IMG/VR virus record: IMGVR_UViG_3300028886_000041
DNA length: 64,000 nt
Direction: 5' to 3' (one strand)
Source of the DNA: a virus
Taxonomy: Duplodnaviria; Caudoviricetes
Shown: positions 10,082 to 58,890 of the stretch, piece after piece
Position numbering within the stretch: the first letter of the stretch is position 1
Layout: each line of letters starts with the position of its first letter
Translations under genes and position numbers: made by a program
Notes under the pieces: model-generated
The model's input: only the letters and a program-made list of their open reading frames with translations
Told to the model about the DNA's origin: nothing
Databases searched by the model: none

Positions 10082-10171
10082 GTCTATAGTGTTTATTTGT
10101 TTATTTTCTTAGTGTGTTATCTATCAAATCCAATAGATAATATAAAATTTCTAAATCAGGATCATTCATTA

Positions 10172-10525
10172 TTATTCCTCTGTTTCCTCAATAATATAAT
10201 AATCGCCACGATAATTACTTATAAAATCAGAAGTCCATTTTACACCTATATTAGAAAGATTCAATCTTTTCATTGCATTAACTGGGGTATCTTTTTTAAG
10301 AACAATAAGAACATCTTGTCTTCTGTTTTTACCAGCAACGTTATCTGTGATATCATAATAATCAACAATAGATCCTTCGGGGACCAATTTTTCTTCTTTT
10401 TCAAAAAACGAAGTAACTTGAGAACATGTTTCTTGATCAAGTATGAGCCCCATAAATATCAACGAATTAGTATCGTTGTAATTCTTTTTTACTTCAGTAT
10501 ATAATATTTTTTTTAATGGTGTCAT
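10172..10525 (-). CDS. hypothetical protein
   Basis: Promoter motif upstream. Confidence 0.7.
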   Translation of the reverse strand: MTPLKKILYTEVKKNYNDTNSLIFMGLILDQETCSQVTSFFEKEEKLVPEGSIVDYYDITDNVAGKNRRQDVLIVLKKDTPVNAMKRLNLSNIGVKWTSDFISNYRGDYYIIEETEE

Positions 10526-10593
10526 TTTTATTTTCTTTCTTTTGTATTATTATTTTATGTTATGGTGTTATTATAAATAAGAGTTAAATAAAA

Positions 10594-10653
10594 AATAAAT
10601 CACTTTTTTATACGTAAAGAAAGGAATAACAACGTATAAGGATAAGTGAGAAC
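10594..10653 (-). ncRNA. candidate anti-Shine-Dalgarno loop hairpin RNA, copy 1
   Basis: Outer stem TCACTT/AAGTGA, inner stem TTATACGT/ACGTATAA, loop containing TTCCTTTC; homologous to 12031..12090. Confidence 0.6.
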
Positions 10654-10758
10654 CTTCATTTTAACTAACCTAGTATTTAGAAAAGAAACATTGAATAATT
10701 ATTTGTATTGCTGCAATAATACACAGTACTGGTACGAAATAAAATAATGCATTCATTG

Positions 10759-11064
10759 TTACTTAATAATATAATTAGCTCGCAACATAGCATTACGATT
10801 CTTGCGCCTCGGATCCTTAACAGATATATAATAGAGAAAACTATTAATTACCCTTTTAGGTACCATCATAAACGGAATCTCATATGCTTTAGCAGGGACG
10901 TCAACATCGTATGTAACATTATCCGGCCTATAGTATTCATTACCGTTGATATATCTCACCAAACACCATGCATTATATACCCGGGTTGCGATTCCGGTAT
11001 CCGCATCCACAAAATAATAAGTGAACTCAGACTTCGGTGTTTTATATACTGTTATATTTTTCAT
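10759..11064 (-). CDS. hypothetical protein
   Basis: Start moved to MKNITVY, just after the upstream gene's stop. Confidence 0.6.
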   Translation of the reverse strand: MKNITVYKTPKSEFTYYFVDADTGIATRVYNAWCLVRYINGNEYYRPDNVTYDVDVPAKAYEIPFMMVPKRVINSFLYYISVKDPRRKNRNAMLRANYIIK

Positions 11065-11068
11065 TGTT

Positions 11069-11368
11069 TTATTTGTATCTTTCTGTTCTTGTTTTATCTT
11101 GAACAACGATTTCATTGGTTGTTTCATCAACCGAAATAGTTGCATTGGTTGAAAAAATATCATTTTCAGGAATATATACAAAATCATTTTCTAAAAATAC
11201 CCTATAAATAAATTCTACTTCGTTGTCTCGTCTTCCTATTTTTATTTCCGTTATTTGACCTGTTATAATGCTAGAATATTTTGCTCTAATATCATCATGT
11301 ATAACATTGCGAGCATCTTTAATATAAGCACATACCAAAGAACCAAGTTGATATTTAGACGTCTTCAT
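11069..11368 (-). CDS. hypothetical protein
   Basis: Operonic ORF. Confidence 0.6.
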   Translation of the reverse strand: MKTSKYQLGSLVCAYIKDARNVIHDDIRAKYSSIITGQITEIKIGRRDNEVEFIYRVFLENDFVYIPENDIFSTNATISVDETTNEIVVQDKTRTERYK

Positions 11369-11567
11369 CTTTTTCTCCTAATGTTTTGATATAATTAATT
11401 GTAAACGCATCAGTTGGCATACCAAATAGAATAGCCCATCCAAGCATATACATAGCATAATTAATATCATATAGATACCAAACATACAATGAAACAAATG
11501 CAAGTATCACTGTAAGATGTAATTCGATTACTCGAAGCTTCATACTTAGGTTTTGTAATTTATTCAT
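11355..11567 (-). CDS. small membrane protein
   Basis: Two hydrophobic segments; promoter motif. Confidence 0.6.
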   Translation of the reverse strand: MNKLQNLSMKLRVIELHLTVILAFVSLYVWYLYDINYAMYMLGWAILFGMPTDAFTINYIKTLGEKDEDV

Positions 11568-11587
11568 AAGTTTATTATATATGAGAG

Positions 11588-11980
11588 TTATTTTTTACGG
11601 GTGCCAGCAGACATACGTAATGGTAATATTTTTTCTTTCATGAGTTTATCAATTAAAAATAATAATTCAATTGATTTTTGATTGAGTAAATAAACAAATG
11701 GTGATCTACTAAATTGTCTTATCATATTTGTTAATCTTCTATTAAATATATTAACATCTCTTGATTTCATTAAATTACATATTGAATCTACTTGTTTTTT
11801 AGTTAACCAAAAATGTATCCATTGAAATTCTCGTTCTGCACATTCTTTTTCAATAAACGCAAAAATTTCTTTGGAAATCTGCCAAGGAGTTGAATCAATA
11901 AGTTTATCGCACATCTTATTATGTTCAACATCACCAACGCACATTCGAGGCTTTTCGATTCGTTCTCCAATTTTAAACAT
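11588..11980 (-). CDS. hypothetical protein
   Basis: Promoter motif upstream; stop lies within the next promoter motif. Confidence 0.65.
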   Translation of the reverse strand: MFKIGERIEKPRMCVGDVEHNKMCDKLIDSTPWQISKEIFAFIEKECAEREFQWIHFWLTKKQVDSICNLMKSRDVNIFNRRLTNMIRQFSRSPFVYLLNQKSIELLFLIDKLMKEKILPLRMSAGTRKK

Positions 11981-12030
11981 TATAATCTTTCTTTTTAATT
12001 TATTAAAATATTATACAAAAGAGTTAAAAA

Positions 12031-12090
12031 AATAAATCACTTTTTATGCCACTTGAAAGGAAGAAAGAGTGACAAACGATAAGTGAGAAC
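12031..12090 (-). ncRNA. candidate anti-Shine-Dalgarno loop hairpin RNA, copy 2 (tRNA-Leu trailer)
   Basis: TCACTT/AAGTGA, inner stem TGTCACT/AGTGGCA (G-U only on minus strand), loop CTTTCTTCCTTTCA. Confidence 0.6.
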
Positions 12091-12125
12091 GCAGAAATAT
12101 TTATGAATATACAATTAAAATAAAA

Positions 12126-12512
12126 TGGTACCCGGGATGGGACTCGAACCCATACGACCTTGCGATCAGCGGATTTTCTTACCACTATAGTTTTCACTAC
12201 CAGTTATCCAACTGTTTGTGGTCTGGACTTTCCCTTCATCTTCAACATAACTTGGTCAGATGTGCTCCATCAAGTCTCTACACCTTCTTTTATAAATACC
12301 TTGATATGTTTAGAACTTCAAATAGTTCCTTGGTTACTCCTTATCAAGTAGGTTATAACTAAACGTTATAGATTTGCCACGTATTATAAAAGCTTGGCTC
12401 GGGATTAGCATTTTAAAGCCTTCCCCGAATTTGAAGCATTCTACTTAAGTATTTCTACTTAAGCACTCAACTTTGCCTAAGTCCGCTGCGTCTACCATTC
12501 CGCCACCCGGGC
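12126..12512 (-). tRNA. trnL: tRNA-Leu(UAA) split by a group I intron (exons 12479-12512 and 12126-12177)
   Basis: Exon 1 GCCCGGGTGGCGGAATGGTAGACGCAGCGGACTT; exon 2 AAAATCCGC...GGGTTCGAGTCCCATCCCGGGTACCA; splicing gives GCGGA-CTTAAAA-TCCGC. Confidence 0.9.
12178..12478 (-). mobile_element. group I intron (trnL-UAA type, 301 nt, no ORF)
   Basis: Inserted after U34 and ends in G; core-like blocks CAAATTCGGGGAA, AATCCCGAGCCAA, GGTGTAGAGACT, GAAAGTCC. Confidence 0.85.
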
Positions 12513-30777: not shown

Positions 30778-30882
30778 GGGTGGCTCCCTTATAAATATAA
30801 AACTTCCAGGAGCCGTATATGCTGGGAAAGGATAAAACAGCATAAGTTTATTGCAGTTTCGGGTTCTCTGCCAACCGAAAAT
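30778..30882 (-). ncRNA. candidate tRNA-spacer sRNA (pseudoknot, anti-SD hairpin, hairpin)
   Basis: TTTCGG/CCGAAA stem with loop GCAG able to pair CTGC; TATGCTG-TTTTATCCTTTCC-CAGCATA; GGCTCC/GGAGCC. Confidence 0.5.
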
Positions 30883-30960: not shown

Positions 30961-30965
30961 ATACG

Positions 30966-31039
30966 TGGTAACGGTAAGACTTGCACTTACTTCAAACCCC
31001 TTATGAGAGGGTTGTCTCACTATATCCAACCTCGTTACC
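30966..31039 (-). tRNA. tRNA-Met/Ile2(CAU), atypical D arm
   Basis: GGTAACG/CGTTACC acceptor stem; ACCCT-CTCATAA-GGGGT. Confidence 0.7.
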
Positions 31040-31048
31040 GTTTTAAAA

Positions 31049-31377
31049 TGGTGGAGACGCAGGGAATTGCACCCTGGTGTTATATCGCTATAATTTCCAA
31101 TTCGTTCACAAGTTTAGTTTGTTTAATCTTACTACAAACAAGAATTTCATTTCCATTCCTTATTTAATTTCAATATCGAACGGTAGTATATTGAAATCAT
31201 ATTCTTTCATTGGTCACTAATTAAGAATAATCCTTAGTTTTTCCATGCAGCCTTATTACTAAGCTGCAATAGCGTATGTATTGCCATTTATATTTTTGAA
31301 TAATTTTAAAGTATGTTATTCATCTACTACTTGTATCATTTAAAAATTTTCACGACTAATCGATTCTAATCGTCCCC
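31049..31377 (-). ncRNA. ssrA: tmRNA
   Basis: GGGGACG/CGTCTCC-ACCA acceptor with G3:U70, T-arm GGGTGCAATTCCC, tag frame GNTYAIAA* at 31285-31259. Confidence 0.92.
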
Positions 31378-31871: not shown

Positions 31872-31884
31872 GAAAAATTATTAT

Positions 31885-31967
31885 TGGGCAATGTAGGTAA
31901 CGCTCCTACCCAGCTAATAAGCAAGAGATTTACAGTCTCCCCTCCGTCTTTAGAAGAATAATTACCC
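31885..31967 (-). tRNA. tRNA-Tyr(GUA)
   Basis: GGAGA-CTGTAAA-TCTCT, long variable arm. Confidence 0.8.
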
Positions 31968-31981
31968 ATATAATTCAAAAA

Positions 31982-32055: not shown

Positions 32056-32062
32056 GTAAAAT

Positions 32063-32136
32063 TGGGTGCAGTCGCCGGAATCGCACAATCGGTCCTTCAG
32101 CTTATGGGGCTGATATGCACTTTACACCACCCTGCA
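32063..32136 (-). tRNA. tRNA-Met(CAU), degenerate or atypical
   Basis: TCAGC-CCCATAA-GCTGA with CCA end; acceptor and T arm irregular. Confidence 0.55.
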
Positions 32137-32152
32137 ATATTAGAAAGAACAA

Positions 32153-33968: not shown

Positions 33969-33973
33969 TTAAA

Positions 33974-34047
33974 TGGTCGGGTATATCCGATTTGCACGGC
34001 GACCCATCGCCCCAAACGACGTATGTTCCTATTACACCATATACCCG
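33974..34047 (-). tRNA. tRNA-Pro(UGG)
   Basis: CGGGTAT/ATACCCG-ACCA; anticodon loop TTTGGGG. Confidence 0.8.
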
Positions 34048-34064
34048 TATTTTATTTTTAAATT

Positions 34065-47317: not shown

Positions 47318-48430
47318 TTAATTAAATATTTGTTTTTTCTTTTCTATGAATTCTTTAAGTTCTTTTTGAATTTCTTCTTGGTTCATTACTAAAAAGTTTA
47401 AATCTTTTTTAAATTCAGTATAAGCTTTTCCTTGTTTTTCGGTAAGAGTTCGCATATCATCGCCAAAAAATTTATTAGCAAACTCTCTATCAGTATGATA
47501 AAAAGCACTAACAAATTCTGAAAAATTATAATGGTCTTGCTCTCGATCTTTAATGATACTATTTTTATAATTAAGCCAAGCTATTTCTTTTTCAATATTA
47601 TCTATTGTATAATCACCAAAGATTTTTCTCAAATATTGGTTTTGTTCATGCTTAGTTGTAGGAATATACTTAATTTCATCTTTAGATTTTTCGGGTTGGC
47701 TCTTTAGCCATTCAAAAAATCTTTTAAATACTTTGCTATCGGCTTCTCGTTTCCTATGTTTGCAATTTGCTAGGCTGCTTTTAAATACTTCGTGTGTAGC
47801 AAACGGGCAACTCCAAACAAACTTAAAAGCATCTTCTTCGGTTTTTATATTTTTATATTGATTTTCATCTAATTGGAAAAATTCAAAAACTTTATAATCA
47901 CTAAAACCATAAAGAGAATCTCTTTTAATTAAAATATCATAATTTCTAATTTTTAGACCTTCCATGCCAAAAGCTACACCCATATGTCTAGCAATAATAC
48001 CAAGTAACATTCCTATACAATATGACAAATAGAAATGTTTTATTAGCATATCATAGAAATCAGTTAAAATAAAATCTACTTGATATTTATTTTGATATAG
48101 AAAATGAACAATCGGGCCATTTGTCTTAATAATAGAATCTTCTCCAAAATATTTCTTAATACGTTCTTGGAGAGATTCACTATCGATATATAGATTTTCA
48201 GAATTTTTGCAAACAATAACATCTATGTCTCCAAAACTTTCTTTATTTGTAAATTCGTTTGGAAACATAAAATATCCTTCAGTATAGAAAATGTCATTAT
48301 CATTTTCCACTTCTCTTATCCAGTCTAAAAAGAAATCGGATATTTTTTGTCTATTATCAAAGTAAGTCTCTCTATCCATTTTTAGAGATTCTTTCCCGTT
48401 GAAATGTTCTTTAAAAACTCTACCGCCCAT
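47318..48430 (-). CDS. Pol-beta-superfamily nucleotidyltransferase
   Basis: MGG start, KESFGDIDVIV, YQVDFI, G+LLG..A...G..FG..GL. Confidence 0.75.
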   Translation of the reverse strand: MGGRVFKEHFNGKESLKMDRETYFDNRQKISDFFLDWIREVENDNDIFYTEGYFMFPNEFTNKESFGDIDVIVCKNSENLYIDSESLQERIKKYFGEDSIIKTNGPIVHFLYQNKYQVDFILTDFYDMLIKHFYLSYCIGMLLGIIARHMGVAFGMEGLKIRNYDILIKRDSLYGFSDYKVFEFFQLDENQYKNIKTEEDAFKFVWSCPFATHEVFKSSLANCKHRKREADSKVFKRFFEWLKSQPEKSKDEIKYIPTTKHEQNQYLRKIFGDYTIDNIEKEIAWLNYKNSIIKDREQDHYNFSEFVSAFYHTDREFANKFFGDDMRTLTEKQGKAYTEFKKDLNFLVMNQEEIQKELKEFIEKKKQIFN

Positions 48431-48438
48431 TATTGTTT

Positions 48439-48945
48439 TTATTTTAAGTCTTTTATAACTTTAAATATTTTAATAGCTTTTTGGATTTCTCCATCGGTTA
48501 AATCAGTATCAAATTTTACTAAATGTTTATAATCTTTGAATAATGGTTTAGTCATATCCAAAAATTCAGTTCGATTTCTTTCTTTTCTATTTTCTTCATC
48601 TAATCGTTTAAACATATCAATAGCGATTGAAATTACCATAACCTCAGTATTACATATTAATTTTCCATTTTTAACAGATGCATTTCCAAGGCATGAATTT
48701 TTATCAACTATGACATATTCTTCATTCTCATATGTAAATATTAATTTAAAATGATTATCATCCGTTCTTCGAAGTTCGAAAATTGAATTATAGGTTTCAT
48801 TAAATATAACATTTATGCCACTTCCAAAAATTAAAGGAACGTTTTTAGCATATGTTTTAATAGTATCGAGACAGGATAAGAATCCATTTATAGTAGCATA
48901 TCTAGATAATATTTCTTTTAATTCTATTTCATCTTGTTTAGTCAT
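48439..48945 (-). CDS. hypothetical protein (MTKQ family)
   Basis: MTKQDEIELKEILSRYATINGFLSCL, like 40428..41279. Confidence 0.7.
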   Translation of the reverse strand: MTKQDEIELKEILSRYATINGFLSCLDTIKTYAKNVPLIFGSGINVIFNETYNSIFELRRTDDNHFKLIFTYENEEYVIVDKNSCLGNASVKNGKLICNTEVMVISIAIDMFKRLDEENRKERNRTEFLDMTKPLFKDYKHLVKFDTDLTDGEIQKAIKIFKVIKDLK

Positions 48946-49008
48946 TTTGTTTTTCTTTCTTTTTTACTTTTTAATCATTTTAAAAATTATTAATTAATGT
49001 TCTCATTT

Positions 49009-49317
49009 TTATCCCGCATTATAAGAAGTACAAATCATATAAGACTGTTTTTGTTCTCTACTTTTTCCTAAAAGAATAACATCAACATTCTCTTTTCTGA
49101 AATAATAGTATTGTCGATTTTTGTCTATAATGTCTTCAAAATTAAAAGAAGAAATCTCTTTTTCATAAGTAGATTTATCTCCAAAAGCACATTGTAATGT
49201 AGAATCATAATTATGAATTGCTAATGCCTCTTCTTCATTTTTTGCATAGCAAACATATGAATCATGCTCTTCGTAATCTGGAGAATCTTTTCTTCTTACT
49301 AAATAAATATTTCTCAT
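49009..49317 (-). CDS. conserved phage hypothetical protein (YLVxR..DYEExDS.V..A.NEEEA)
   Basis: Motif with C-terminal ICTSYNAG. Confidence 0.7.
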   Translation of the reverse strand: MRNIYLVRRKDSPDYEEHDSYVCYAKNEEEALAIHNYDSTLQCAFGDKSTYEKEISSFNFEDIIDKNRQYYYFRKENVDVILLGKSREQKQSYMICTSYNAG

Positions 49318-49541
49318 TTTTGTTCCCTTTTGTCTTTCTTCATATACAAACGTTTAATTATACAATTATTCCAAGGCCAATCATAAAATCCAGAACTAAG
49401 CAAATCTTCCATCTCTTCTAAATTATGATGATAGATAGTTGCATCTTCAAGTTTATCTACAAAAACAACAGGAGATTTCCATAAATTGTCGCATTTTAAG
49501 TAGGTTTTATTTTTTCTATTATAAACTATTGATTTTGCCAT
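49314..49541 (-). CDS. hypothetical protein
   Basis: Promoter motif directly upstream. Confidence 0.6.
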   Translation of the reverse strand: MAKSIVYNRKNKTYLKCDNLWKSPVVFVDKLEDATIYHHNLEEMEDLLSSGFYDWPWNNCIIKRLYMKKDKREQK

Positions 49542-49576
49542 AATGATATTTTAAAAGAGAGTTATTTTTTAAAAAT

Positions 49577-49607
49577 AAAAAACCATAAGGAATTTTTCCT
49601 TATGGTT
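49577..49607 (-). terminator. intrinsic terminator
   Basis: AACCATAAGG/CCTTATGGTT followed by a T run. Confidence 0.7.
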
Positions 49608-49641
49608 ATATTATATTTAAGAGTTATTTTAAATTAAATTA

Positions 49642-49740
49642 TCAATTATTTTTTACATGATTGATCACTCGTGTATTAAAAGTTTTACCTTTATCAGCTG
49701 CATTTATATTAGAAAAAGCAGCTGTTCTATTCATAGATGG
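49642..49740 (-). pseudogene. AT-rich orphan 3' gene remnant, possibly the displaced C-terminus of 50059..52068
   Basis: Open frame PSMNRTAAFSNINAADKGKTFNTRVINHVKNN* directly beyond the GC-rich block. Confidence 0.4.
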
Positions 49741-51613
49741 TGCATGACCGGCTCCGCGCTATTTCACGCGCTCGAGCAACCGAGAAACATCATGATTACC
49801 GTCACCGAAAAGATACGCCCAGTGTGTTATTCCTCTGAGCCCTCGTCGGGTTCGTCTATCGCCTTGCCGTTGTATCGGTCAGCGATAGCCTGAACGTTGG
49901 ATATGCCGAGACGCGCGACGTCGTCCGCGTTCAGGCGTATGACGCGCCCTGGTGCGACAAGTCTGCCGCCGTCTGTGTAGATGTCACCGCAAACTTCGAT
50001 GACCTCGATTTGCAGGTTTTCGTTATCGCCGATTTTTATGCGTGATTGATTTTTCATTTTACATTATGAGTTCGTCGTATGTTATCGCCGCTCGAAGATT
50101 GACGATTCCAGTTCCGGCGGCGTTGCGGAAAATGGAAATTGGAATGTTGTAATCGCCGCCGCCCCAGCAGTTGACAGACTGCCACGTGCGCGCGGCGGAG
50201 AATGTTACCGAGGAGGTGTATCCGCTCGCCGATACGCGGAGAGTTAGCGCTTTGTCGCTCCAAAGTTTGAGCGTGCAGACGCACTTGCCTGCCGCAGCCA
50301 CGACTGTCGAGCCGCCTATTCTGGCGCCCGTATTCTTGGACAAATCGAGCGAGAAATTATCGTAACAAGCCGACGCGGGATTTCGGTTTTTGTCAGCGCT
50401 GACGCCGAGCCCGACGGGAACATATCCCTCGTGAAAATTAAGGTGGTTTCCGTTTCCGGACAGGTCATGTATTTGAGGCCCTGAAAGGGCGTCGTCGGCT
50501 TCGCAGAGGACGTCATCGGCGGTCGTTATCGAAAATCCTGCGACGGATATGGCGTAGTCGCCGTATGTGGGTGAGTTTGTCGGTGAGACGAACAGCGCGG
50601 GAATGTAAAGGCCGTCCTCAATGCTGTCAGTTATGACGGCGTCGTATTCGTGCCACGAGGTGTCGGGTGCGGTCGGCGCGTTGATTTTGACGAGTTGCTG
50701 CTCGGAGATTTCGGGCCCCCATATATAGACGCCGAAGAAGACACTGTCGGTCGCGCTCGTGAGCTTATTCCACTTATACTTAAACTTTATGCGGTATTTG
50801 CGCGTCGATGTGTCCGTCTGAAAATGCCCGTAAGAGTTGCTGAGCGCAGCTTGTTCGTAGATGTTGCCGCTGCCGTTCATCGCGAGGTCTATGGCGTAGC
50901 TCTCGCCGTCGGGCAGGTCTGACGCTCTGTTTTTAAGATAAGACACAAGCGGGCCAGCTACCCAGTCGCCATTTTTAACGGACGAGTATTCCTCCGGCGG
51001 CGTGGTGATGTTCCACGCGGACGTGGACGCGCCCATTGTCGTGTCGGTCGAATATCCATATCGACTGCGCAGCGCACGCGGAACGGATTTCCCCGCGCGG
51101 TAGTCGGCGAACGTGTAAGGCGCGTTCTCGTCCAGAATATCGAAGTCAAAAACCGCAAGCCGCGAAAAGCTGCTGTCGCCATTCGCATAAGTGGAGTTGA
51201 AGCCGAACTCAGTGACGGACGTGGAGAAAGACAGGCTCGTAGCCGCGAGAGACGAATCGTTCGCGGCGATTTTTATTTTTCCGTCGGACGTCCAGACGAA
51301 CGCGACGCAGTATATCGGCGCGGCGGGAATATTGTTGAGCGTGACAGTGTCGAGCCGTTGGTCGTCCATAATTGTGAAAAACGCCGTCGCGGACGACGTG
51401 TGTCCGCCGAATGGGCAGCCGAACATTGTAAACAGCTCCGACTCGTTCATGCTGTCGGTCGTGAATACAAACGAACAAGTTGGCTGAATGTTATAATTTG
51501 CCCGATTGCAGGAGACCTTTTCGGCGCCAGCTGGCGCGTAAAATTTGCCGATGCGCTCTCGCATTAAAAATTCGCTCGAGGACTGAGCCACCTCGAGAAT
51601 TTCGTCGGAAATG
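49741..51613. other. GC-rich horizontally acquired segment (~1.9 kb)
   Basis: Abrupt switch to GC-rich sequence and GC-ending codons, with an abrupt return. Confidence 0.9.
49827..50057 (-). CDS. small protein co-acquired with the GC-rich segment (tail-fibre chaperone-like position)
   Basis: Starts 1 nt after the stop of the large gene. Confidence 0.6.
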   Translation of the reverse strand: MKNQSRIKIGDNENLQIEVIEVCGDIYTDGGRLVAPGRVIRLNADDVARLGISNVQAIADRYNGKAIDEPDEGSEE

Positions 51614-52068
51614 TCACCACTTAAAGTAGCACCATTGATAGTTGGTTTGTTTTCTAAATCGTTATAACTAACACTTAAATCAACAGTGGAAAGATCACCA
51701 CTTAAAGTAACACCATTGATAGTTGGTTTGTTTTCTAAATCGTTATAATCTGATGTTCCACCATCATTTAATAAATATACTAATTTAGCATATCTCGGAT
51801 ATAATCCTTCTTTTCCAGATAAGGGTGGTATAACAGATGAATCTATTTCAACTAACGCACAATCTTCAGCATGTGCTGGATTATACGGATTTTCCGGGTG
51901 AATATCGTTATTATTGCCGTTATTTACGTTATAAACAAATGTAGCATATCTTGGATATACCCCTTCAAGCCCTGTTAGAGGAGAAACAACCGATTGATCT
52001 ACCTCTGTTAAAGTTAAATCTTCAGCATGTGCTGGATTGTAAGGATTTTCTGGATTAATAGTTGACAT
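50059..52068 (-). CDS. putative tail fibre/receptor-binding protein, chimeric
   Basis: Repeats NPENPYNPAHAED x2 and YNDLENKPTINGxTLSGD x2; beta-rich C-terminus with DLSGNGNH (LamG-like tail); ATAAATA motif before MSTINP. Confidence 0.65.
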   Translation of the reverse strand: MSTINPENPYNPAHAEDLTLTEVDQSVVSPLTGLEGVYPRYATFVYNVNNGNNNDIHPENPYNPAHAEDCALVEIDSSVIPPLSGKEGLYPRYAKLVYLLNDGGTSDYNDLENKPTINGVTLSGDLSTVDLSVSYNDLENKPTINGATLSGDISDEILEVAQSSSEFLMRERIGKFYAPAGAEKVSCNRANYNIQPTCSFVFTTDSMNESELFTMFGCPFGGHTSSATAFFTIMDDQRLDTVTLNNIPAAPIYCVAFVWTSDGKIKIAANDSSLAATSLSFSTSVTEFGFNSTYANGDSSFSRLAVFDFDILDENAPYTFADYRAGKSVPRALRSRYGYSTDTTMGASTSAWNITTPPEEYSSVKNGDWVAGPLVSYLKNRASDLPDGESYAIDLAMNGSGNIYEQAALSNSYGHFQTDTSTRKYRIKFKYKWNKLTSATDSVFFGVYIWGPEISEQQLVKINAPTAPDTSWHEYDAVITDSIEDGLYIPALFVSPTNSPTYGDYAISVAGFSITTADDVLCEADDALSGPQIHDLSGNGNHLNFHEGYVPVGLGVSADKNRNPASACYDNFSLDLSKNTGARIGGSTVVAAAGKCVCTLKLWSDKALTLRVSASGYTSSVTFSAARTWQSVNCWGGGDYNIPISIFRNAAGTGIVNLRAAITYDELIM
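51614..51748. repeat. 54-bp direct repeat x2 (51614-51667, 51695-51748)
   Basis: One mismatch; abuts the GC-rich junction. Confidence 0.9.
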
Positions 52069-52094
52069 TATACAAATATTTATCAAAAATTAAT

Positions 52095-58853: not shown

Positions 58854-58890
58854 GATGCATATATTATAAAAAAGAGTTATTTTAAAAATA

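Follow-up and report, generated by a model that had tools for sequence, protein, structure and literature searches.

In a stretch of 64,000 nucleotides from a large uncultured cattle-rumen phage (IMG/VR record IMGVR_UViG_3300028886_000041; the window), two intergenic regions carry composite hairpins, called here E1 and E2 (Table 1). These hairpin structures are real and paralogous, and both belong to the minus strand, on which the genes also run. Judged by their position directly before a U-run and a promoter, E1 and E2 are probably terminators or 3'-end hairpins. Each displays a large loop rich in cytosine and uracil (CU loop) that is complementary to the core of ribosome-binding sites (RBSs) of the same phage. 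We tentatively regard the two elements as composite terminator-promoter cassettes resembling the promoter-early stem-loops (PeSLs) of T4-like phages and capped by a probably functional CU loop, and a role of E1 and E2 in a translation switch, as put forward by the original prediction made from the sequence alone, is unproven.

Two paralogous hairpins in a terminator position

Comparison of E1 and E2 reproduced the predicted sharing of their flanks, which are identical at 34 of 34 nucleotides. The 5' flank GTTCTCACTTATC (13 nt) has exactly two copies in the window, at 10653-10641 and 12090-12078 of the minus strand, and the 3' flank ATAAAAAGTGATTTATTTTTT (21 nt) is the same in both elements; exact matches to AAAAAGTGATTTATT are restricted in the window to 10608-10594 and 12045-12031. 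The cores, 32 nt in each element, are only about one third identical. In the minus-strand fold, both copies form the 6-bp outer helix UCACUU/AAGUGA. The inner stems differ in sequence and still pair, as had been claimed, with the 8-bp UUAUACGU/ACGUAUAA in E1 and the 7-bp UGUCACU/AGUGGCA, including one U-G pair, in E2. The free energies are -12.0 kcal/mol for E1 (z -2.4) and -11.3 kcal/mol for E2 (z -2.8). The common loop core was also recovered: TTCCTTTC stands at an equal offset in both loops, and both contain UUCCUUUC. These loops are 88-93% pyrimidine and are unpaired in both the minimum-energy and the centroid folds. Sense-strand CU tracts are rare; the minus strand of the 64-kb window has five occurrences of TCCTTTC, three of them in the loops of E1, E2 and a third hairpin (Table 1) and one as the antisense of the Shine-Dalgarno (SD) sequence of a plus-strand gene.

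Regarding the strand, the G-U pair of E2 had been said to work only on the minus strand. It would indeed be a C-A mismatch on the plus strand, but the plus strand of E2 takes a different fold of equal energy, in which part of the motif is buried. The plus-strand folds reach -12.6 kcal/mol (E1) and -11.7 kcal/mol (E2), and GGA stands in the plus-strand loop of E1. Because the plus strand of E2 folds equally well, the assignment of both elements to the minus strand is based on gene orientation and the U-run and not on the G-U pair.

Both copies show the same order, in which the hairpin is followed by UUUAUUUUUU abutting the outer helix and then by the promoter, and the cassettes including the promoter are direct repeats of ~95 nt. 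The promoter motif, A-tract-TAACTCT-N4-TAWAAT with no -35 element, was found at ~45 intergenic minus-strand sites of the window, and a stricter pattern gave 38 copies. A hairpin and a U-run precede five of these 38: the copies at E1 and E2 and those behind ordinary terminators at 58879, 49564 and 29922, whose perfect stems of 8-13 bp carry loops of 3-6 nt and whose junction from U-run to promoter is as in E1 and E2. Matching terminator/U-run/promoter junctions, here again with simple stems and loops of 3-6 nt, are present in G001 (IMGVR_UViG_3300045988_163778, 121.8 kb), a phage genome that is syntenic with the window at 30-77% protein identity and that has the common promoter motif at 49 sites. 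G001 is the only relative sharing a motif of the TAACTCT-N4-TAWAAT type, which is absent from five more distant phages.

Both elements close transcription units co-directionally and right before the next promoter: E1 ends the operon 11980-10759 and E2 ends the gene of tRNA-Leu(UAA). The sequence directly upstream of each element contains no promoter motif. The idea that they are free-standing small RNA (sRNA) genes was therefore not borne out by their placement in the terminator slot.

The four genes that the direct repeats E2 and E1 bracket encode proteins for which no credible Pfam or PHROG family was found, and by this position they are described as a movable module. Homologues of the 99-aa and 101-aa proteins are encoded in G001 at 39% identity, in another context and without an E-type frame. 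In the strain contig L003, an open reading frame (ORF) of at least 263 aa (L003:1105-1893) replaces or extends the 99-aa gene (window 11368-11069), a strain-level variation within the bracketed module.

Recurrence of the CU loop in a related phage

As the original prediction stated, E2 trails a tRNA-Leu gene. This tRNA-Leu(UAA), read from 12512 to 12126, was missed by default ARAGORN and by the Rfam tRNA and group I models because of its 301-nt intron, which is inserted at anticodon position 34/35, where group I introns of tRNA-Leu genes classically reside. Over 42 nt, the intron is 97.6% identical to Pseudoalteromonas phage pYD6-A. E2 begins 36 nt past the CCA of the tRNA, and E1 has no tRNA linkage. 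The G001 counterpart of the gene, at 105887-106204 on the minus strand (L054:5887-6204), has a 232-nt intron.

A hairpin with a CU loop was found in G001 in the trailer of tRNA-Met/tRNA-Asn, ~78 nt past tRNA-Asn, so that the 3'-trailer position is common to this hairpin and E2. Located at L054:4584-4547, it has a perfect 9-bp stem, GUGUAUUUU/AAAAUACAC, and the 20-nt loop CCUUCUUUCGUCCUUUCACA. The loop agrees with that of E2 at 14 of 16 bases whereas the stems are unrelated in sequence, and this recurrence gives additional support to a conserved loop. When the E2 loop 16-mer was searched in the whole of G001 (121.8 kb, both strands), the only match with at most two mismatches was the loop of this hairpin. 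In simulation the chance of such a match in G001 was 0.12, and loops of 10-24 nt closed by at least 9 perfect pairs cover 1.1% of that genome, the joint chance of the coincidence being ~1e-3. As a separate strong terminator follows the G001 hairpin, the CU-loop module is separable from termination. No E-type frame was found in G001. Directly past tRNA-Asn, and before this hairpin, there is a minihelix with a T-arm-like AGAGTTCAAATCTCT core (L054:4617-4655, minus strand) that resembles a fragment of a tRNA or a tRNA-like minihelix. On these sequence comparisons, the CU loop appears reasonably likely to be under selection, as a module able to ride on different stems and, in the case of E1 and E2, on a terminator frame.

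The frame of E1 was in turn recovered on L009 (ERZ761584 NODE-199; identical in L078), a phage-like contig that has no proteins in common with the window. This homologue, at L009:672-735 on the plus strand, shares with E1 a 15-nt 5' flank, the inner stem TTATACGT/ACGTA and the 3' flank, and it has an extra inserted hairpin. The sharing of the frame by L009 and E1 suggests a horizontally shared terminator or attenuator scaffold. A GGAG SD follows the L009 element after ~3 nt (TAAT), and ~50 nt upstream of the element lies a promoter-like site of the TAnnTTTG type.

Strain variation is small and little informative, with no substitution in E1 or E2 in any sampled strain. The near-identical contigs and runs came from bovine and sheep gut or rumen metagenomes. 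E1 is identical in the near-identical strains L001 and L006, and in the diverged sheep-gut strain X10 there are 0 changes over 10594-10639 compared to 11 in the flanking ~200 nt. E2 is identical in L001-L005 and unchanged in the strain of run X4. Extra contigs obtained from neighbour-gene homology searches show no differences across the elements. In one bovine sample, two metatranscriptome runs yielded contigs identical to the window at 10090-10581 and 10670-11670, and none across E1; being contigs of one study with low depth near E1, these data are neutral on termination and on sRNA accumulation.

Wider searches returned little else. Exact-pattern scans with the frame gave no matches in IMG/VR, 19 matches among one genome per prokaryotic species, all of them chance-like, and 20 in metagenome contigs, the only true homologue being that of L009. 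Searches by blastn with E1 and the L009 element against cultured phages gave chance-level matches only, and homologues of the genes upstream of E1 and downstream of the L009 element were confined to their own lineages. In Rfam, including the C4 and Cuckoo-type families, nothing matched E1 or E2 at the gathering threshold; at E<=10, the only overlap with E2 was the plus-strand HPnc0260 (12020-12160), at 27.7 bits compared to a gathering threshold of 59 (E=5.7), which is chance level. An antisense SD for a plus-strand ORF was ruled out, as no conserved start codon or ORF lies downstream; an attC-like element or one like a miniature inverted-repeat transposable element (MITE) was ruled out by motifs that do not fit, and a decoy of the tRNA-Glu anticodon loop by the loop sizes.

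The window has ~27% GC, and nearly all of its genes are on the minus strand. They include those of Hsp70, an NAD-dependent ligase and RtcB, a transfer-messenger RNA (tmRNA) and at least 10 tRNAs; no close cultured relative of the phage was found. The phage-encoded tmRNA (Rfam RF00023, 54.9 bits) is located within the tRNA cluster, at 31049-31377 (minus strand), and is missed by ARAGORN. Cloverleaf-like folds with long closing stems occur in the minus-strand tRNA spacers 33969-34064, 32056-32152, 31872-31981 and 30962-31048, the first of them with a CCA end and a UGG-like anticodon loop; called by neither ARAGORN nor Rfam, these spacers may be unusual tRNAs. A block of 40% GC, compared to 27% for the genome, was also seen at 48000-52000, where it overlaps a 675-aa ORF (50059-52086).

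Table 1. Coordinates of the hairpins and associated features in the window
Feature	Position	Strand	Description
E1 composite hairpin	10594..10653	-	outer helix 10649-10644/10605-10600; inner stem 10639-10632/10615-10608; 16-nt CU loop 10631-10616 (UGUUAUUCCUUUCUUU)
U-run after E1 outer helix	10590..10599	-	UUUAUUUUUU, terminator tail
Promoter 3' of E1	10570..10586	-	TAACTCT-N4-TATAAT; drives gene 10525-10172
E2 composite hairpin	12031..12090	-	outer helix 12086-12081/12042-12037; inner stem 12074-12068/12053-12047, one U-G pair; 14-nt CU loop 12067-12054 (CUUUCUUCCUUUCA)
U-run after E2 outer helix	12027..12036	-	UUUAUUUUUU
Promoter 3' of E2	12010..12026	-	TAACTCT-N4-TATAAT; drives operon 11980-10759
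Four-gene operon	10759..11980	-	products of 130, 70, 99 and 101 aa; between the direct repeats E2 and E1; unit closed by E1
tRNA-Leu(UAA) gene	12126..12512	-	301-nt intron at position 34/35; E2 in 3' trailer
Third hairpin	30818..30844	-	7-bp stem, 13-nt loop UUUUAUCCUUUCC, between tRNA-Glu and tRNA-Gln; a weak and doubtful member
Example promoter sites	58878, 49563, 34830, 26167, 16349, 9483, 164	-	

Complementarity to ribosome-binding sites and comparison with known systems

An obvious SD is lacking in most of the ~103 ORFs of the window, and many genes have their ATG 6-8 nt past the -10 element and are therefore leaderless. The SD variant AGAAAGGA(AU) precedes ~12 ORFs, and the CU loops are, as predicted, complementary to its GAAAGGA core. 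The GAAAGG RBS was found before all eight starts for which it had been claimed (3275, 4013, 4267, 5422, 7153, 8576, 16291 and 26111), as was the 13-nt match of E1 before 4013; the E1 loop also matches 12 nt in the leaders of 16291 and 26111. Complementarity to the leaders was compared with that of 1000 shuffles per loop, and the 13-nt match of E1 gave P=0.023. It should be noted that any CU loop of such composition matches the leaders, because these are purine-rich.

The original prediction had further proposed that the loops mimic the 3' tail of 16S rRNA. In the four loops, UCCUUUC is preceded by U, U, A and G. The 16S tail usually has C at this base, so the loops would not be copies of it. 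Mimicry of the tail accounts for the loops, which read U/A/G-UCCUUUC, no better than simple complementarity does. Pairing with RBSs, argued by analogy, is the leading candidate mechanism for the CU loop, and we advance it with considerable doubt.

By their arrangement, E1 and E2 are similar to the PeSLs, the composite terminator/promoter cassettes of T4-like phages (PMC2839356, PMC4122927). In both cases a large phage has, in its variable regions, short repeated terminator-plus-promoter units that enclose small genes of unknown function and that could, through their shared sequence, serve as recombination points. By contrast, the sequences are unrelated, the promoter of E1 and E2 is TAACTCT-N4-TATAAT, only two copies have the E-type frame, and the second tier with its large CU loop is not described for PeSLs.

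The loop itself can be compared with LhrC1-5 of Listeria monocytogenes, whose terminator loop carries a CU-rich motif that pairs with the SD region of the lapB mRNA (PMC4132741). Here again a CU motif stands in the loop of a hairpin that is probably a terminator, is complementary to an AG-rich RBS and is redundant across copies. However, each LhrC is a stand-alone, promoter-driven sRNA that has three motifs and targets proven by experiment, whereas E1 forms the 3' end of an operon and E2 that of a tRNA gene, their motif is UCCUUUC instead of CUCCC and the pairing is predicted.

A tRNA trailer as a source of regulatory RNA is known from the E. coli glyW-cysT-leuZ operon, whose 3' external transcribed spacer, 3'ETS-leuZ, is reportedly an RNA sponge. 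For E2 and the G001 hairpin, likewise, a functional RNA could derive from the trailer of a tRNA transcript including its terminator, and we infer that E2 may be released by tRNA processing. 3'ETS-leuZ differs in that it sponges sRNAs and not the RBSs of mRNAs, its sequence is unrelated and E1 is not tRNA-linked. The Cuckoo/CcsR (alpha-r14) sRNAs and the c4 RNA of phages P1/P7 have hairpin loops with anti-SD-like pyrimidine or RBS-complementary motifs, the c4 antisense RNA being phage-encoded and matured by processing. E1 and E2 share the display of such motifs in loops but are unlike these RNAs in architecture and motif, and no family of this kind matched them in Rfam at E<=10.

Possible roles of the CU loop

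The interpretation that we prefer, and that we regard as possible, combines a terminator cassette with a functional CU loop for which RBS pairing would be the likeliest use. The frame, that is the UCACUU/AAGUGA helix with UUUAUUUUUU, sits where this phage family puts intrinsic terminators, with a promoter right downstream, and would carry an apical hairpin whose stem is free to vary and whose 14-16-nt CU loop keeps the core UUCCUUUC. Transcription would halt at the U-run, and the 3'-terminal hairpin would persist as a stable stub, in the case of E2 following tRNA processing. The exposed CU loop could then pair with the purine-rich RBS (AGAAAGGAAU) of SD-led accessory genes and lower their translation, in the manner of LhrC. 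Extended to a rumen jumbo-phage family, this would mean that a conserved CU loop (~UCUUUCNUCCUUUCA) is built into hairpins at the 3' ends of highly transcribed units (tRNA trailers and operon ends), that the stubs accumulate in infection and occlude the private AGAAAGGAAU RBSs of the phage's own accessory genes, and that translation shifts to leaderless and SD-less genes, an RNA-only temporal switch placed on terminators; we consider this extension speculative and rather unlikely.

Several observations weigh against a functional CU loop on a terminator. As terminators, E1 and E2 are atypical, with AU-rich two-tier stems, loops of 14-16 nt and energies of -11 to -12 kcal/mol, and a simple consensus terminator scan calls neither. 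In the comparison with shuffled loops, E2 with 8 nt (P=0.72) and, with 9 nt each, the third hairpin (P=0.44) and the G001 loop (P=0.37) match no better than expected from composition, so that the claim of loops matched to the phage's own RBSs stands beyond composition for E1 but not for these; nor does the E2 or the G001 loop have, in its own genome, a longer complementary target beyond the SD core. The predicted conservation of the loop in homologues likewise holds in part: it is seen in the G001 tRNA trailer, but at the G001 position syntenic with E1 there is no such element, and the L009 loop is the 6-nt UUAAUU instead of a CU loop, from which it follows that the frame exists without one. 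Covariation is anecdotal, the comparison spanning two phage lineages. The third hairpin is present between two tRNAs at 30844-30818, as predicted, but is not significant (-6.6 kcal/mol, z -1.8, with 14 of 200 shuffles equally good) and is missing from the minimum-energy fold of the tRNA-Glu/tRNA-Gln spacer. It adds little, since loose hairpin loops cover 17% of the sequence.

The strongest rival, doubtful in our view though a serious one, holds that E1 and E2 are plain terminator-promoter cassettes in which recombination or gene conversion maintains the similarity of the flanks, with the PeSLs as precedent (PMC4122927, PMC2839356), and whose CU loops are functionless, being alike by descent, by pyrimidine-rich composition or as an inverted copy of a leader. 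It is in keeping with a slot that is that of ordinary terminators, with direct repeats bracketing four genes without a credible family, with the L009 frame and with a leader complementarity due mostly to composition. Against it, the other pre-promoter terminators of both phages have simple stems and 3-6-nt loops; a loop of 14-16 nt should weaken a terminator and so needs a reason. Two further points argue for a function: G001 retains the E2 loop on an unrelated stem that is separate from the terminator, and CU tracts are rare on the sense strand. That function might instead be the binding of a host or phage protein with affinity for pyrimidines that modulates termination or RNA stability, with ribosomal protein S1, a cold-shock protein or an Hfq-like protein as candidates, which seems improbable. 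S1 and cold-shock (Csp) proteins prefer pyrimidines, and Csp proteins antiterminate. A loop conserved without a long complementary target in either genome would suit a protein site, and its location on a terminator suggests control of read-through; however, no candidate binding protein was found, the neighbouring genes are without a credible family, and the G001 hairpin is not the terminator.

An action in cis appears quite improbable. On read-through RNA, the CU loop would pair with the atypical RBS of the next gene, AAAGAAAG before 10525 and AAGAAAGA before 11980, and silence its translation. Over 8 nt, each loop is indeed perfectly complementary to the RBS of the gene downstream of it, but 8-nt matches are expected for any CU loop against purine-rich leaders, L003-L005 have AAAGAAAA at the RBS downstream of E2 with an unchanged loop, and no gene follows immediately after the G001 hairpin. 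Nothing emerged when read-through transcripts were folded to minimum energy, an approach that cannot model pairing between the loop and an RBS. An action of the plus strand or of the DNA, by a CsrA-type protein bound to the GGA loop or by a polypurine/polypyrimidine DNA-binding site near the promoter, is very improbable. The plus-strand folding energies and the GGA of the E1 loop would allow it, but almost all genes and all promoter copies of the region are on the minus strand, the U-run is found only on the minus-strand side, the deviating fold of E2 buries part of the motif, and no conserved plus-strand ORF lies downstream.

Taken together, if the CU loop of E1 and E2 is functional, this phage would be exploiting the hairpins at its transcript ends, one of them in a tRNA trailer, to carry a regulatory motif directed at RBSs. 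Such an element would unite composite terminator-promoter cassettes, 3'-end-derived regulators and CU-rich anti-SD loops in one compact structure, and would give a simple account of how the translation of SD-led, leaderless and SD-less mRNA classes is timed. If the loop is not functional, E1 and E2 are still a clear PeSL-like terminator/promoter cassette outside the T4-like phages.

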